A DNA stretch of 59,308 bases from a virus (taxonomy: Duplodnaviria > Caudoviricetes): the IMG/VR virus record IMGVR_UViG_3300020472_000025, positions 1 through 59,308 of that record; one strand, 5' to 3'. A program made the translations under genes and the position numbers. A model generated the notes under the pieces. It searched no databases. It worked only from the letters and a program-made list of their open reading frames with translations, and was not told where the DNA came from. Of the stretch, positions 16,933 to 59,308 are shown in pieces. The stretch's first letter is position 1. Every line of letters starts with the position of its first letter.

Positions 16933-17184
16933 ATGCCATCAGAACCAGCACTTGACATCGTTAATTCCGTATTCGCAGGTCAAAAAGATCTGTCAGATTA
17001 CGTTGATAGTCGTATGAAAGAACTAGCCGTCGATAGTATAGAGACACTTAAGAAAGACATAGGTAATGCTATGTTCGCTCCTACTCCTGACGAGCCAGAA
17101 GCAGAAACTTCCACTGAGGAAGAACCTGAAACCGCCGTAGCAACTGCAGAACCAGAGGAAACATCAAATGAAACTGATCACTGA
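16933..17184 (+). CDS. Acidic prohead core protein (gp67 position)
   Basis: Small acidic ORF between gp20 and gp21; TAAATA at 16906. Confidence 0.65.
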   Translation: MPSEPALDIVNSVFAGQKDLSDYVDSRMKELAVDSIETLKKDIGNAMFAPTPDEPEAETSTEEEPETAVATAEPEETSNETDH

Positions 17185-17812
17185 AGAAATTCATGATACT
17201 AAAGTCATCACTGAAGGTAAAGGATCTAAAAGGAGAACCTTTATTGAGGGTGTGTTCTTGCAAGGAGCTATAAAGAATCGTAATGGACGTATGTATCCAC
17301 TGCAAACTCTTAATAAAGAGGTGCAGAAGTACAACGAAAATTACATTAAAAAAGGTCGTGCGATGGGAGAACTAGGACACCCTGATGGTCCTACTATCAA
17401 TCTAGACCGTGTGTCACACCTCATTACTTCTCTTAAGCAAGAGGGTAATAACTACGTAGGTAAGGCACGTATATTAGACACTCCTATGGGACGTGTCGCT
17501 AAAGAATTACTCGATGAAGGCATTAAGCTCGGCGTGTCTTCACGGGGTCTCGGTTCGATTAAAGAAGAGAACGGAGTAAAGGTAGTAATGGATGACTTCA
17601 TTCTTGCTACTGCTGCTGATATTGTTGCTGACCCATCTGCACCTGATGCTTTCGTAAATGGAATCATGGAAGGTAAGGAATGGATCTGGAATAATGGAGG
17701 CATATCTGAACAACGACTTGACTCAATTAAGTCAAGAATTGACTCAGCATCACGGACTCAAATTGCAGAAAGAAAGGTTTCCGCATTTAATGAGTTCTTG
17801 CAAAGTTTATAA
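17168..17812 (+). CDS. gp21: Prohead protease gp21
   Basis: MKLITEE, NRNGRMYP, GELGHP, GVSSRGLGS, DIVADPSAPDA. Confidence 0.97.
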   Translation: MKLITEEIHDTKVITEGKGSKRRTFIEGVFLQGAIKNRNGRMYPLQTLNKEVQKYNENYIKKGRAMGELGHPDGPTINLDRVSHLITSLKQEGNNYVGKARILDTPMGRVAKELLDEGIKLGVSSRGLGSIKEENGVKVVMDDFILATAADIVADPSAPDAFVNGIMEGKEWIWNNGGISEQRLDSIKSRIDSASRTQIAERKVSAFNEFLQSL

Positions 17813-17814
17813 GT

Positions 17815-17822
17815 TATAAATA
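17815..17822 (+). promoter_or_regulatory. Late promoter TATAAATA for gp22/gp23
   Basis: Exact consensus. Confidence 0.85.
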
Positions 17823-17861: not shown

Positions 17862-18917
17862 ATGTCTGAAGCTATTGAGAACCTGGATGAAAACCAAGTG
17901 ACGGCGAACGCCAACGCTGGTGACAAAGCCCAGAAAAAACTAGAGAATGACGGTAGTCGTCTCGGCGGTGCACAAGATCTTGGTGGACCTACACCATTTA
18001 ACAGTAAACCCACTGATGATTCCAACAAGTATAAGACTGGTGGTGGACCAACCGCAGTACCCCCTAAGACAAAACCATCTGATGCATCTGCACAGAAGGC
18101 AGAGTTCTCTGGTAAGGGTGATGTAAAAGCAGGTCATGAACCTGAAGGAGAGGTGATTGCTGAAACCGAAGCTCCAGAAGAAGAAAATGTAGAAAAGATC
18201 GAGATCGATCTATCTGCTGACGTTGCTGCTCTAACAGAAGGAGAGGATCTCTCTGAAGAGTTTAAAGAGAAAGCAAAGACAATCTTCGAAGCAGCAGTTG
18301 TTTCCAAGATAAACGAAGAACTAGAGCGTATGCATACTGATTATGCTAAGGTTCTAGAAGAAGAAATCGAGACTGTTAAATCCGATCTTGCAGAGAAGGT
18401 TGACGAGACTCTTGCCTACCACGTATCGAAGTGGGTTAAGGACAATGAGATCGCAATTGAGCACGGAATTAAAACTGAAATGGCAGAGAGTGTCATGGCA
18501 GGTCTCAAACAAGTTTTTGTCGAGAATTTCATTGATCTTCCCGACGAGAAAGTTGACTTAGTTGATGAAATGACTGAGCAACTCGATACTATGGAGAAAA
18601 AACTCAACGAACAGATCGAAGAAAACGTTGGTCTCTCAAAAGAGGTCGGCGGCTATATTAAGAATGGGATTGTGAGCGAGCTGAGTGAGGGATTAAGTCT
18701 CTCTCAGAAAGAGAAACTGCAATCACTTGCAGAAGCTGTTGAGTTTGAGAATGAGGAGCAGTTTAGAGAGAAAGTTGCAACACTACGTGAGTCATACTTC
18801 TCTACCGCCCCAGCCACTAAAACTGTGACTGAGGATGTACAAGTAGAAGCACAAGCAAATGTAGGTTCAGCTATGGAAGGGTACGTAAGTGCTCTGTCTC
18901 GCTGGTCCAGTAAGTGA
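17862..18917 (+). CDS. gp22: Prohead core scaffold protein gp22
   Basis: LSEEFKEKAKTIFEAAV, acidic coiled coil, LRESYF; synteny. Confidence 0.95.
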   Translation: MSEAIENLDENQVTANANAGDKAQKKLENDGSRLGGAQDLGGPTPFNSKPTDDSNKYKTGGGPTAVPPKTKPSDASAQKAEFSGKGDVKAGHEPEGEVIAETEAPEEENVEKIEIDLSADVAALTEGEDLSEEFKEKAKTIFEAAVVSKINEELERMHTDYAKVLEEEIETVKSDLAEKVDETLAYHVSKWVKDNEIAIEHGIKTEMAESVMAGLKQVFVENFIDLPDEKVDLVDEMTEQLDTMEKKLNEQIEENVGLSKEVGGYIKNGIVSELSEGLSLSQKEKLQSLAEAVEFENEEQFREKVATLRESYFSTAPATKTVTEDVQVEAQANVGSAMEGYVSALSRWSSK

Positions 18918-18956: not shown

Positions 18957-20306
18957 ATGTTTAATTCAGAATCATTGCAGGAAAAGTGGGAACCCATTCT
19001 AGAGCATTCCGAGATCGATGGGATCAAGGACAAGTATAGAAAGGCCGTTACCTCCGTCCTGTTAGAAAACCAAGAAAGATTCCTCAGGGAGGAGGCTGGC
19101 GTTCTTAACGAAGCCGCTCCTACTATGAGCGCAGGTACTGCTGGATTCAGTGGTTCCTCCACCGCTACAGGTCCTGTTGCTGGTTTCGACCCAGTTTTGA
19201 TTAGTCTAATCAGACGCTCAATGCCTAAGCTTATTGCTTATGACATTGCTGGTGTTCAGCCTATGACTGGTCCTACTGGTTTGATCTTCGCAATGAGATC
19301 ACGCTACGGTACAACACGTACAGGTACTTCCAACGAAGCATTCTTTAACGAAGCAGATACAGAGTTCTCAGCAGAGAACGCTGCAAGCGACCTAGGTAGA
19401 ACTGCACAAGCAGGATCTAACCCAGGACTTCTTAACGCTTCTGGAACCTATAACACTTCAGACGGCATGCCAACGGCAGAGGCTGAAGCATTAGGTGATG
19501 CTGCTGGAAACCAGTTCGCTGAAATGAACTTCAGCATTGAGAAGGTAACAGTGACCGCTAAGTCACGTGCCCTCAAAGCTGAGTACAGTTTAGAATTGGC
19601 TCAAGACCTTAAGGCAGTTCACGGACTAGACGCTGAGTCTGAACTCGCAAACATCCTCTCAACAGAGGTTCTTGCTGAGATCAACCGTGAAGTAGTTAGA
19701 ACTGTTTACAAGATCGCACGTCCAGGCGCACAGAACAACACAGCAACCGCTGGTATCTTTGACCTAGACGTTGACTCCAATGGTAGATGGTCAGTTGAGA
19801 AGTTTAAGGGTCTACTCTTTAACATCGAACGAGACATGAACGCAATCGGGCATGAAACTCGTCGTGGAAAGGGTAACATCTTGATCTGCTCTGCCGACGT
19901 TGCTTCTGCACTATCAATGGCTGGCGTTCTTGATTACACTCCTGCTCTTGCTGGTAACAGCAACTTGCTCCCAGATGACAACAGCAGCACACTTGCTGGA
20001 ACTCTGAACGGACGCATCAAGGTCTATGTTGACCCTTACTCTGCTAACGTAAGTGATCGTCACTTCTACGTTGCTGGATACAAAGGTTCTTCTGCCTATG
20101 ACGCTGGACTGTTTTACTGCCCATACGTTCCACTACAGATGGTTCGTGCCGTTGGTCAGGACACCTTCCAACCAAAAATTGGCTTTAAGACTCGTTATGG
20201 CATGGTTGCCAACCCATTCGCTGAGGGAACTGCTCAGGGAAGTGGTGCTCTTACTGCTAATGCAAACCGTTATTACAGACGTACTCTTGTTGACAACCTT
20301 ATGTAA
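18957..20306 (+). CDS. gp23: Major capsid protein gp23
   Basis: LLENQE, LIRRSMPKLIAYDIAGVQPMTGPTGLIFAMR, KSRALKAEYSLELAQDLKAVHG, FQPKIGFKTRYG. Confidence 0.99.
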   Translation: MFNSESLQEKWEPILEHSEIDGIKDKYRKAVTSVLLENQERFLREEAGVLNEAAPTMSAGTAGFSGSSTATGPVAGFDPVLISLIRRSMPKLIAYDIAGVQPMTGPTGLIFAMRSRYGTTRTGTSNEAFFNEADTEFSAENAASDLGRTAQAGSNPGLLNASGTYNTSDGMPTAEAEALGDAAGNQFAEMNFSIEKVTVTAKSRALKAEYSLELAQDLKAVHGLDAESELANILSTEVLAEINREVVRTVYKIARPGAQNNTATAGIFDLDVDSNGRWSVEKFKGLLFNIERDMNAIGHETRRGKGNILICSADVASALSMAGVLDYTPALAGNSNLLPDDNSSTLAGTLNGRIKVYVDPYSANVSDRHFYVAGYKGSSAYDAGLFYCPYVPLQMVRAVGQDTFQPKIGFKTRYGMVANPFAEGTAQGSGALTANANRYYRRTLVDNLM

Positions 20307-56796: not shown

Positions 56797-57272
56797 CTAC
56801 TACATCACGATTCCAAGCTAACAAAAACGACGAAGGCGATAAGAATTCGCAAGGCGTTGGTAAGCTGAAGAAAAAGGTGGTAAAAGGTATCACCGTCAAT
56901 CCCAAGAAGGAAGATCTTATGTCAGAGAAATTAGATCCCGTCGGCAAGGAAGATGCTGACCTTGATAACGATGGGAAAAAGAATGACAAGAACGATAGGT
57001 ACTTGCGTTATAGAAGAAAGGTACGTTCATCTGTCATCAAAACACAAAAAGAAGCATTAGAATCATTACGTAATAAGGAACTTGTAGAGGAAGAAGAGGT
57101 AGTAAATGAGGTTGCTGTTACAGCAGTCGCTACTCCTGCTGCTGTTGGTTCTACATCACACAGCAATGTTAAGAAAGGTTCTGGTACTGATGATGCTAAG
57201 AAGAGAATGAAGCAGAAACTTCTTGCTCAGACCGCTGAGTATGACAAGAAGCGGAAGGAAGCACGTGGTTGA
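56793..57272 (+). CDS. Basic hypothetical protein with DxDxDG loop
   Basis: LDPVGKEDADLDNDG..DRYLRYRRK. Confidence 0.65.
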   Translation: MTTTSRFQANKNDEGDKNSQGVGKLKKKVVKGITVNPKKEDLMSEKLDPVGKEDADLDNDGKKNDKNDRYLRYRRKVRSSVIKTQKEALESLRNKELVEEEEVVNEVAVTAVATPAAVGSTSHSNVKKGSGTDDAKKRMKQKLLAQTAEYDKKRKEARG

Positions 57273-57280
57273 GGTAGGTC

Positions 57281-57523
57281 ATGAACCTAATAGAATACGA
57301 CAACGATGCTGCTGCCGATAAGATAGCACGGTACAAGAAAGAAAAAGAAACTCGCAAAGAATACCTCTACAAGTCCAAGCATGGACCTAAGAGGTACAAA
57401 GAGTTTATGAAGAAGGATGCTGATGCTGCTGCAAAAGGCACTCCTAAGAACCCCAAAGGGGTTAAAGCTCTCCACAAAGGTAAGTGGGGGTATATGAAGA
57501 ATAGGAAATTTACTCCTGATTGA
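57281..57523 (+). CDS. Small Lys-rich hypothetical protein
   Basis: GAGG RBS; KGVKALHKGKWGYMKNRKF. Confidence 0.6.
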   Translation: MNLIEYDNDAAADKIARYKKEKETRKEYLYKSKHGPKRYKEFMKKDADAAAKGTPKNPKGVKALHKGKWGYMKNRKFTPD

Positions 57524-57554
57524 TGCTATATAGAGTACTATACTCTAATTGATC

Positions 57555-57743
57555 ATGGTTAACTTTTTAATGCCTATTGCCATTAGTATTATTAACAAGG
57601 CAGTAGATAGGATCCCAGAGGATCTAGACTCAGTAATTAAAGACTTCTTAATTAAACTACTTAAGAAAGCAGCAGCTAAGACTGGAAACAAAGTGGATGA
57701 TGAACTAGTCATCGCTCTCCAGAAAGCACTGCTAGAGTCTTGA
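57555..57743 (+). CDS. Small conserved hypothetical protein
   Basis: KIP/RIP-EDLD...TGNKVDDELV. Confidence 0.65.
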   Translation: MVNFLMPIAISIINKAVDRIPEDLDSVIKDFLIKLLKKAAAKTGNKVDDELVIALQKALLES

Positions 57744-57746
57744 TAT

Positions 57747-57754
57747 TATAAATA
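57747..57754 (+). promoter_or_regulatory. Late promoter TATAAATA
   Basis: Exact consensus upstream of GGAG and ATG 57791. Confidence 0.8.
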
Positions 57755-57790
57755 AAATATAGGAATACTCACTGTCCAGAGGAGAACACA

Positions 57791-58624
57791 ATGTCTGTCG
57801 TAGGAAAACTTGACTCAGCAGCGTTTAGCAATACTATTGGTGTCACAAATGGTGACGCAACCGTATCTAAAAATGCTGGTGATACTGTAGTTGTAGGTGA
57901 CGTGCTTGACATCAGTGGCGTAAGCTACATTGTCAAACAAGTAACCAGCACCACTGCAATCGAACTGCATAAGAATTATGCAGGATCAACCGCAACCGTT
58001 GCTGCTGCGGCAGTGCTACGAAGAACTCCACCTAAAGCAGTTGCAGAGTATGTAATTGTTGGTGGCGATAGTAATTCCTATGATTTAGTTTTTGTAGACA
58101 CAACTGAGGACAGCATTGCGTCTAACAAGAGTCGTGGTATTTCTGGACCTGGTTGGTGGCAGTATAGAACATATACTTCACACAACGGTGACGAAAAGCA
58201 TAAGGCAGAGTGTTTAGTACCTATGAAGGTTGCTGCTGGTACTTCTGGAGACTTTGGTGACGATACCCTCGCTGCTGATGTACTTGAGACAATCACAGTT
58301 GGTACACAACCTGCTAACTCCACCTCATCTTCTGGTGCTGGAACATTCGTTGCTGCATTTACAGTCGATCAGTCTGGTACTAAGCAGTACAAGTGGCAGA
58401 GACAGACAGCTACCGCTACTACTCGTTGGGTAGACATCGTTGGTGGTGCTAATGGTCTTGACACTGGTATCACATATGCAGACTTCACTACAGCAACACT
58501 TGCTTACAGTGGACTTGCTGGTGATACATTAGATGGTTACAAGTATCGCTGTGTGCTTAACACAAGCAAGGGTGCTGAAACTAAGAGAACAAACGGAGCT
58601 GCCACACTTACATTCGGTAGCTAA
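57791..58624 (+). CDS. Virion structural protein with C-terminal Ig-like domain
   Basis: PGWWQYRTY..G..KAECLV; QP...YKWQ...DGYKYRCVL Ig-like pattern; late promoter. Confidence 0.65.
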   Translation: MSVVGKLDSAAFSNTIGVTNGDATVSKNAGDTVVVGDVLDISGVSYIVKQVTSTTAIELHKNYAGSTATVAAAAVLRRTPPKAVAEYVIVGGDSNSYDLVFVDTTEDSIASNKSRGISGPGWWQYRTYTSHNGDEKHKAECLVPMKVAAGTSGDFGDDTLAADVLETITVGTQPANSTSSSGAGTFVAAFTVDQSGTKQYKWQRQTATATTRWVDIVGGANGLDTGITYADFTTATLAYSGLAGDTLDGYKYRCVLNTSKGAETKRTNGAATLTFGS

Positions 58625-58641
58625 ACTGAACCTTTTATATA

Positions 58642-59007
58642 ATGTATTTTGATGAGTTAACAGAACACAATCATGTTCTCTTTGCAATAAAGCACTACGA
58701 AAACCCTCACTCGGTAACCGTAGATGACTTTATGGAAGATATGAAGAAGTTCAAATACCTTAAGAGATTATTCAAGAGGTATTTGAACTCTAATGTTCTT
58801 AGAACTAATTTAATATTAAATCATCTAATCATATTGTTTAATGTATTTGGTGAGGGTACCACACCTCTACTCATGTATAAACTTGAGAGAGAATACTGGT
58901 CTATCCTAAAGACATTTCTCATATATCTAAATCGTTACGACGGTTATGGTGTTCTTGAGGATGTTGATATTGACGATGATGTAAAAGATATCCTAAACGA
59001 ATTGTGA
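58642..59007 (+). CDS. Conserved T4-like marine phage hypothetical protein
   Basis: FAIKHYENP, EDMKKFKYLKRL, LILNHLIILFNVFG. Confidence 0.75.
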   Translation: MYFDELTEHNHVLFAIKHYENPHSVTVDDFMEDMKKFKYLKRLFKRYLNSNVLRTNLILNHLIILFNVFGEGTTPLLMYKLEREYWSILKTFLIYLNRYDGYGVLEDVDIDDDVKDILNEL

Positions 59008-59308
59008 TTAACGAAGACGCACCAACAATGAGCGCAGGTACAGGAGGATTCAGTGGATCTTCTAATGCCAGTGGTCCTGTGGCGGGTTTTGATCCTATGT
59101 TAGGTTCCAATAAGGAAAAGAAACCTAAACTGCAAAGAAGGAAACCGAAGAAGCGTAAGTATACAGTAAAGGAAGACGTTTATAGTAAAGAGAAAGACCA
59201 AAGTAAAAGTCATTACTTACCATATCTAATATGTTATGATGATGCACAGGAGTATGTGCTCTATGGTAAGTCAGAAGCAGAAATTAAAGTACAGTTGAGA
59301 AAGATATA
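59004..59308 (+). CDS. Hypothetical protein (3' truncated) starting with a copy of the gp23 maturation segment
   Basis: GTGA overlap with the upstream stop; frame open to the window end; MINEDAPTMSAGTGGFSGSSNASGPVAGFDPML. Confidence 0.75.
   Translation, partial: MINEDAPTMSAGTGGFSGSSNASGPVAGFDPMLGSNKEKKPKLQRRKPKKRKYTVKEDVYSKEKDQSKSHYLPYLICYDDAQEYVLYGKSEAEIKVQLRKI

Follow-up and report, generated by a model that had tools for sequence, protein, structure and literature searches.

The window analysed here is a complete IMG/VR record (IMGVR_UViG_3300020472_000025; 59,308 bases, about 32% of a genome). It derives from a T4-like cyanomyovirus closest to phage P-RSM6, and it ends within a small open reading frame (ORF), starting at position 59004, that opens with a copy of the maturation site and mature N-terminal arm (N-arm) of gp23, the major capsid protein. 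The likeness between the two genes is far beyond chance. Sequence comparison places the copy in a conserved unit in which a putative protease site [L/I/V]-x-E, optionally preceded by a leader or cargo, leads into a copy of the mature N-arm of that phage's gp23 and then a basic tract, with a C-terminal domain (C-domain) as an optional last part. We see about an even chance that the protein is targeted to the prohead, cut there by the prohead protease gp21 and docked via its arm copy.

The original and the copy have the following features:
18957..20306, plus strand: gp23 major capsid protein, 449 amino acids (aa) (Pfam Gp23 PF07068, E = 1.8e-144)
19104..19112, plus strand: gp23 maturation motif L-N-E, cleavage predicted by homology with T4
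19113..19199, plus strand: mature N-arm of gp23 (the original), assigned from sequence, AAPTMSAGTAGFSGSSTATGPVAGFDPVL
59004..59306, plus strand: small ORF, GTG start, 101 codons followed by the end of the record; PHROG 696 / Syn9 gp190 / T4-GC 426
59004..59015, plus strand: leader M-I-N-E of the small ORF (4 residues), with I-x-E as a putative gp21 site (compare L-N-E of gp23)
between 59015 and 59016, plus strand: putative gp21 cut in the small ORF
59016..59102, plus strand: copy of the mature gp23 N-arm, DAPTMSAGTGGFSGSSNASGPVAGFDPML, 29 aa, the most conserved part of the family
59103..59159, plus strand: Lys/Arg-rich tract, GSNKEKKPKLQRRKPKKRK, predicted to be disordered
59214..59306, plus strand: first half of a C-terminal alpha/beta domain, YLPYLICYDDAQEYVLYGKSEAEIKVQLRKI..., conserved, ending with the record

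The small gene and its relatives

Residues 50-81 of gp23 (codons 19104-19199) read LNEAAPTMSAGTAGFSGSSTATGPVAGFDPVL, and the N-terminus of the small ORF reads (M)INEDAPTMSAGTGGFSGSSNASGPVAGFDPML, after which the Lys/Arg-rich tract begins. Counted by hand, 26 of 32 residues are identical, so that the near-exact copy in a separate gene claimed by the first-pass annotation of the window is real. A search of the whole record at the DNA level returned the gp23 segment 19105-19192 as the sole second match (78% identity over 88 bases, E = 1.8e-15). The many synonymous codon differences that had also been pointed out are present as well: among the last 22 codons, 11 of the 18 that specify identical residues differ. 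Codons at identical residues of gp23 and the copy differ in 35-83% of cases in all lineages, which rules out recent gene conversion as the cause of the identity and indicates that the agreement is old and held by selection.

Protein-level selection on the copy had been proposed as well. Besides the codon differences, it is supported by the ratio of nonsynonymous to synonymous polymorphism (pN/pS), which amounts to 0.12-0.31 over the first 34 codons, i.e., the peptide, in comparisons with five relatives; the frame is thus coding. Moreover, 10 of the 12 invariant columns in an alignment of 18 sequences fall within the arm copy. These data bear on the view that the likeness is a neutral relic, left by an old partial duplication or recombination of the gp23 5' end and devoid of function. 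Illegitimate recombination is common in phages, and the gene has been lost in some lineages, both of which suit a relic. It is, however, hardly credible in view of the purifying selection on the peptide, which is the part conserved best, the retention of residues at largely diverged synonymous sites, the repeated co-variation with gp23 that includes insertions and deletions, and the presence of the module in T4.

The GTG start of the small ORF overlaps the stop codon of the upstream DUF7207 gene (GTGA), whereas RefSeq places the start of the gene in P-RSM6 and P-TIM40 at an internal ATG (MSAG...). The upstream start is favoured because INEDAPT is conserved 5' of the internal ATG and because S-WAM1 lacks the internal Met. 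A frameshift fusion with the DUF7207 gene, whose product ends with ...LNEL in the window, was considered and rejected, as this ending is not conserved in P-RSM6, P-TIM40 and S-SSM4.

The first-pass annotation needs correcting in that the ORF is incomplete: the record ends after 101 codons, and full-length relatives have 130-290 aa. These comprise the gp23-like peptide, a Lys/Arg-rich tract and a conserved domain of about 60 aa, to which many add a long coiled C-terminal extension. Behind the arm copy, every member examined has a tract rich in Lys and Arg, which makes these proteins basic. Of the first-pass description of the downstream part, the basic tract therefore holds, while the 'unrelated sequence' beyond it turned out to be a conserved small domain. 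An AlphaFold2 (AF2) model of the homologue from L015 (132 aa) shows disorder over residues 1-60 (predicted local distance difference test, pLDDT, about 50) and a beta-beta-alpha-alpha-beta-alpha domain over residues 69-130 (pLDDT about 90). Foldseek found no match of this model in the PDB at E <= 0.001. Further structural comparisons were uninformative: the best hit of VIA-align in wide mode (Z 4.9) reflects a common small alpha/beta arrangement, BFVD contributed three matches at E <= 0.001, two of which are cyanophage proteins (ACG-2014d, S-H38), and the best score of an ESM Atlas feature search was 0.82, with viral clusters.

A profile search of 1.84 billion representative proteins yielded 266 matches at E <= 0.001, and the counts given here refer to the 150 matches listed. 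The peptide is found outside a gp23 context in 103 of them, two are gp23, and 45 are without the core motif. In 65 of these 103 proteins it begins no later than residue 25, and in the remaining 38 it lies further in. All 38 internal cassettes have a [LIVMF]-x-E motif whose end lies 9-17 residues ahead of the G[FY] core, whereas 49 of 243 control windows drawn from these proteins contain it; a [LIVMF]-x-E followed by the peptide is also the layout of the gp23 maturation site. In long forms (188-558 aa), which are orthologues at the same locus, the site is preceded by segments that are basic, of low complexity, of the glycine-zipper type or DUF6321. This cargo amounts to 250-430 aa in close relatives of the window and is missing from the window itself. 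In P0125 (for which no relatives were found in IMG/VR), P0129 and P0107 the module is confined to the extreme C-terminus and limited to site, peptide and basic tail, and short forms of 57-65 aa (S-SSM7, L047, L064) consist of a 9-16-residue leader ending in L/I-x-E, the peptide and a basic tail. The peptide of every form is N-terminal, or would be so after the putative cleavage, and is placed as in mature gp23.

Some individual members deserve mention. Many long forms begin with a conserved MPAKS-x-AQ, and P0036, P0040, L150 and L152 contain DUF6321 plus glycine-zipper segments, parts that also match PHROGs of no known function and a 'tail associated lysin' family. Such segments may represent ejected, membrane-active cargo. 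S-SSM7 has only the 57-aa short form, located between DUF7207 and DUF7201 (region L147:1467-1640; positions 170618-170773 of the phage record); its leader MKTYKELKE resembles that of a 54-aa ORF of T4, and the match to the family profile in this phage holds one TAA stop. In S-WAM1 (L095) and S-H38 (L097) the small gene keeps INEDAPTNSVGTG, after which an unrelated, Pro-rich AET.LPP..EPPGI replaces the GFSG...GPVAGFDP part. The S-WAM1-type arm (AGSSPAGFSG) also occurs in some library proteins.

Loose agreement of the copies with the gp23 of their genomes

Whether each copy tracks the gp23 of its own genome was a check put forward with the first-pass annotation. Such tracking was seen in several independent lineages including T4, and it failed in 10 of 23 cyanophages. 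Judged by the sequences compared, it is therefore loose and episodic rather than strict.

The T4 member is an ORF of 54 aa, which we take to be gene 61.1, situated between AdfA and the 342-aa primase ORF, directly upstream of the latter. It comprises a 10-residue leader ending in I-K-E, an arm copy and a charged tail. The copy is 48% identical to T4's own gp23 arm over 33 residues (E = 2.9e-5), and a search of T4 with that arm matched only gp23 and the 54-aa ORF; the internal proteins of T4 contain no arm copy. A degenerate pattern of the leader matched three times in T4 and not at all in the reversed control. The other two matches are identical leaders on genes of 100 and 193 aa that PHROGs label as internal virion proteins. 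Seven of the 10 residues are shared between the leader of the 54-aa ORF and the internal-protein leader, including positions 7, 8 and 10, and position 4 is occupied by another aromatic residue. Passages of the review by Kuhn and Thomas (PMC9026906) state that the propeptides of IPII and IPIII are identical, that their first 10 residues are enough for head targeting, and that residues 4 and 7 serve targeting while 8 and 10 serve processing. The 54-aa ORF is assigned to PHROG 1823, a family without assigned function, and also matches the C-terminal end of a 156-aa family. We found no paper on its function, and gp61.1 was met only as a name in phage genome papers. The gene just upstream (L191:1619-2245, minus strand) encodes AdfA, an anti-DarT factor (PF23813, E = 1e-135).

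Two further cases concern cyanophages. Three near-complete genomes with long forms encode a gp23 that is 86-87% identical to that of the window. In these genomes a PT-x10-GF spacing occurs in both gp23 and the cassette with similar sequence, 4 residues longer than the x6 of both genes of the window. In P-HM2, a search with the phage's own arm detected a 234-aa gene at the same locus (PHROG 4187) that shares an identical 11-residue stretch with P-HM2 gp23, and this stretch is absent from every other phage compared. The arm of P-HM2 is very divergent, and the family-profile search had not picked up the copy. The next gene in P-HM2 (L186:2184-2957) encodes a 257-aa PHROG 24927 protein in place of DUF7201, indicating that the locus is rearranged downstream of the module.

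The length variant, P-HM2 and T4 provide much stronger evidence of tracking than the scores obtained by pairing small-gene peptides with gp23 arms. The pairing included 23 of the 29 phages with a gp23 entry, S-WAM1 and S-H38 being left out because their small-gene peptide diverges after ...GTG, and P-SSM2, S-PM2, P-HM2 and S-SSM7 because no standard small gene had been found in them at that stage. It relied on named phage records, since IMG/VR loci are mostly too short to hold both genes. With gapped alignment, own pairs scored 91.3, while shuffling the pairs gave 82.6 +/- 2.4 (p about 5e-5, without correction for phylogeny); without gaps, the values were 14.7 and 13.9 identities of 22. The signal comes from discrete peptide states. 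Two types of peptide exist, AGTGGFSGS and TTGYTGGD. Whenever the small gene carries the latter, so does gp23; this is the case in Syn9, S-MbCM6, P-SSM3 and P-SSM4, four phages that the gp23 tree does not unite in a single clade. The gp23 of S-RIM8 carries small-gene-like features.

Gene neighbourhood, annotation and expression

Homologues were found by tblastn in 267 phage records with the window ORF as query and in 293 with the full-length P-RSM6 homologue, and all of these records are cyanomyoviruses. The small ORF of the window falls into PHROG 696 (E = 2.8e-30 over 101 residues), as do the full-length homologues of P-RSM6 (E = 8.4e-51) and S-SSM4 (E = 1.5e-125). This family is identical to Syn9 gp190, for which no literature match was obtained, and to T4-GC 426 in the nomenclature of Sullivan et al. 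A Pfam scan of the window ORF and of the two full-length homologues returned no family, and no Gp23 match. Nevertheless, RefSeq labels the small gene 'major head protein' in many cyanomyovirus genomes (among our records L003, L004, L005, L095-L100, L104, L109, L111 and L112), whereas the GenBank entries of the depositors read 'hypothetical protein' or 'gp190'. Because the small gene contains no capsid-protein body, the RefSeq label is an artefact of N-terminal similarity. It seems to spread from the 30-residue likeness to gp23, possibly via PHROG 696.

The gene order is constant: structural protein (PHROG 613), DUF7207, small gene, DUF7201 and primase gp61. It is complete in P-RSM6, P-TIM40, S-SSM4, Syn9 and others, and the window, which ends before DUF7201, shows its upstream half:
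57748..57754, plus strand: ATAAATA motif resembling a late promoter, 37 nt upstream of the string's first gene
57791..58624, plus strand: virion structural protein gene, PHROG 613 'head protein', first of the string
58642..59007, plus strand: DUF7207 gene, PHROG 407, T4-GC 198, with its stop overlapping the start codon of the small ORF

Two neighbouring genes are annotated irregularly in other phages, possibly as a result of frameshift or assembly error: the DUF7207 gene of metaG-MbCM1 (L112:242-364) at 40 codons only, and the PHROG 613 gene of P-TIM40 (L004:1770-2593) as two overlapping coding sequences.

The window contains 14 copies of ATAAATA, all on the plus strand, including one at 17816 before gp22 and the one at 57748 before the structural gene. 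No plus-strand terminator-like site was found in 57000-59308. Contigs of RNA libraries from two studies bridge the junction of DUF7207 and the small ORF, DNA carry-over being possible; in four runs there was no RNA-contig cover over 59104-59308, which is not evidence of absence. Together, late co-expression of the small ORF with the structural gene is weakly indicated.

Possible roles and relation to known systems

Passages in PMC9026906 and PMC7411985 describe that gp21 of T4 cuts head proteins after Glu and that the propeptides of internal proteins dock to the core. For T4 gp23, passages in PMC9546572 report cleavage after residue 65. Residues 66-105 of the mature protein (gp23*) are disordered and interior in the unexpanded head, where they probably touch the scaffolding core; in the expanded head they form an external arm and an 'N-fist' that make inter-capsomer contacts (PMC9546572). 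The whisker is a feature of gp20 and not of gp23 (PMC7136217).

Against this background we propose that the small gene would be expressed late, together with a structural gene, and that the arm copy would dock where the arm of gp23 itself sits in the unexpanded prohead, that is, at the scaffolding core or the inner shell. At the time of gp23 cleavage, gp21 would cut the x-x-E site, which would free the upstream part and leave a basic protein with a gp23-like free N-terminus whose basic tract could bind DNA inside the head. The arm copy would then be a tag, taken from the capsid protein itself, that serves for targeting or anchoring. The protease and a candidate partner are encoded in the window:
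17168..17812, plus strand: gp21 prohead protease (Peptidase_S77), the enzyme proposed to cut the gp23 and small-ORF sites
17862..18917, plus strand: gp22 scaffolding protein (T4_CASP), candidate docking partner of the arm in the prohead

A complex prediction with two gp23 bodies lacking the arm (82-449) and residues 1-48 of the small protein scored 0.02 against a mark of 0.32, from which no conclusion is drawn.

The [LIVMF]-x-E motif before internal copies, the T4 leader that resembles a capsid targeting sequence (CTS), and the cargo of the long forms lead us to prefer docking and processing in the prohead over the idea of an anti-defence decoy. A decoy would present a free arm peptide that mimics the part of gp23 recognised by a host immune sensor and would thereby block that sensor. 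The Lit protease, which senses a gp23 peptide (the Gol peptide), sets a precedent, though for an adjacent gp23 segment. A decoy would also be expected to track its own gp23, and AdfA, the neighbour in T4, counters a host defence. We still consider this very unlikely, since a CTS-like leader and a protease site make sense in the prohead and not in the cytoplasm, and since a structural gene preceded by a late-type motif heads the gene string. In addition, T4 and cyanophages infect hosts whose defences differ greatly, and conservation between them speaks for a role in assembly.

Such a role could instead be exerted on the finished lattice. After expansion, the arm copy might act as a filler or cement that occupies, in trans, 'N-fist' sites of gp23 left empty at special positions such as the portal vertex, with the basic tract and C-domain anchored there in low copy number. 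We regard this as unlikely. It would agree with the externalisation of the T4 arm and its inter-capsomer contacts, as given in passages of PMC9546572, with the absence of gp24, soc, gp67 and gp68 from cyanomyoviruses (reviewed in PMC2984593), and with the arm copy being the most conserved part of the protein; low copy number would in addition account for non-detection in virions. The long forms and the CTS-like leaders, however, point to entry via the prohead core, a tract rich in Lys and Arg would fit DNA in the head interior better than the outside of the shell, and both the P-HM2 protein and the short forms lack the C-domain.

Given that its site-plus-arm layout is the same as that of gp23, the protein might also act as a competing or pseudo-substrate that titrates gp21 or the docking site of the arm, times gp23 cleavage and expansion, and is afterwards broken down or expelled, as other core proteins are. 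The tracking of gp23 within a genome, the probable non-detection in virions and the lack of the T4 core proteins gp67 and gp68 in cyanomyoviruses would all be in line with such an assembly regulator. We deem it quite unlikely, as the variable upstream cargo and the unrelated C-terminal parts are hard to account for and many members have no Glu site.

Targeting to the prohead, processing and docking therefore remain our preferred reading, against which several observations have to be set. Many cyanophage members start without a Glu-ended leader (MTVM..., MM...), and the M-I-N-E of the window, the shortest leader, is far below any known T4 propeptide; hence cleavage cannot be universal. Among the 23 paired phages, ten have the TTGYTG peptide in gp23 and AGTGGFSG in the small gene, so that exact matching is not required; this shows that a shared partner, if any, tolerates both peptide types. 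S-PM2 and P-SSM2 revealed no second copy of their arm in own-arm searches, indicating that the gene is dispensable in some lineages. The count of ATAAATA in the window (14) equals chance expectation (14.4), and only strand bias and position of the motif argue for function. The main weakness is that the small protein was probably not detected in virions. The virion proteome of S-SM1 comprises 41 proteins, as given in passages of Sullivan et al. (PMC3037559), and the depositors' S-SM1 record labels the orthologue SSM1_197 'hypothetical protein', whereas 'virion structural protein' is the name used for other orthologues of detected proteins and, in the depositors' record of S-ShM2, for a neighbouring gene (T4-GC 934). 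A dense Lys/Arg tract behind a long N-terminal peptide free of Lys and Arg is a poor target for tryptic mass spectrometry; alternatively, the small protein could be a core component that leaves the head.

It is tempting to speculate further that, from T4 to marine cyanophages, a copy of the phage's own capsid N-arm, placed behind a prohead-protease site, serves as a portable and co-evolving address tag that loads or anchors varied head cargo at the site of the gp23 arm. This cargo would include basic DNA-binding tails, small folded domains, and glycine-zipper or DUF6321 proteins of 250-430 aa. We offer this broader idea tentatively, rating it somewhat short of an even chance. If it is true, thousands of marine phage genomes could be searched by a sequence rule for proteins inside or associated with the head, the widespread mis-annotation as 'major head protein' would be accounted for, a docking site of the gp23 arm in the prohead would be indicated, and there would be a second handle, a natural one, by which cargo could be loaded into T4 heads. 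Since T4 has its own 54-aa member, the idea is directly testable in the best-developed phage genetic system. We know of no recognisable internal proteins in cyanomyoviruses, and the open literature searched on cyanophage capsid targeting or arm mimicry offered no description of the module.

The closest parallels in T4 are IPII and IPIII (and Alt), basic proteins with a short N-terminal leader ending in I-x-E that is removed by gp21 in the prohead, as described in passages of PMC9026906 and PMC7411985. Protease-processed, head-targeted proteins are thus already known as a kind, and it is the targeting principle that is new. In the T4 internal proteins the targeting information resides in the leader that is cut off, whereas the conserved element of the module is a copy of the capsid N-arm and lies behind the cut. 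Moreover, unlike the T4 internal proteins, many members of the module, including that of the window, have almost no leader: a CTS propeptide has 10-19 residues, compared with the four of M-I-N-E, and the T4 member and the short forms of S-SSM7, L047 and L064 have 9-16. The small protein shares with gp23 (PF07068) about 30 residues at the maturation site and the start of the mature chain. It differs from gp23 by the absence of an HK97-fold body, its size of 130-290 aa, a disordered N-terminal half and a small alpha/beta C-domain.

DarA and Hdf of phage P1 likewise undergo processing by a prohead protease, which removes about 69 N-terminal residues, and are anchored to the inner capsid; they act after ejection (all according to passages in PMC12810830). 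Unlike the module, they are anchored by folded hexon- and penton-binding domains and have no copy of a capsid arm, and no sequence relation exists between the two. By analogy only, the module also recalls the cargo-loading peptides of encapsulins, which are short, flexible and portable and direct varied cargo into an HK97-fold shell. Encapsulin peptides, unlike the module, are not copies of the shell protein and involve no protease step. If the arm copy is indeed an address tag, it would be the phage counterpart of these peptides, derived from the shell protein itself and overlooked even in T4.

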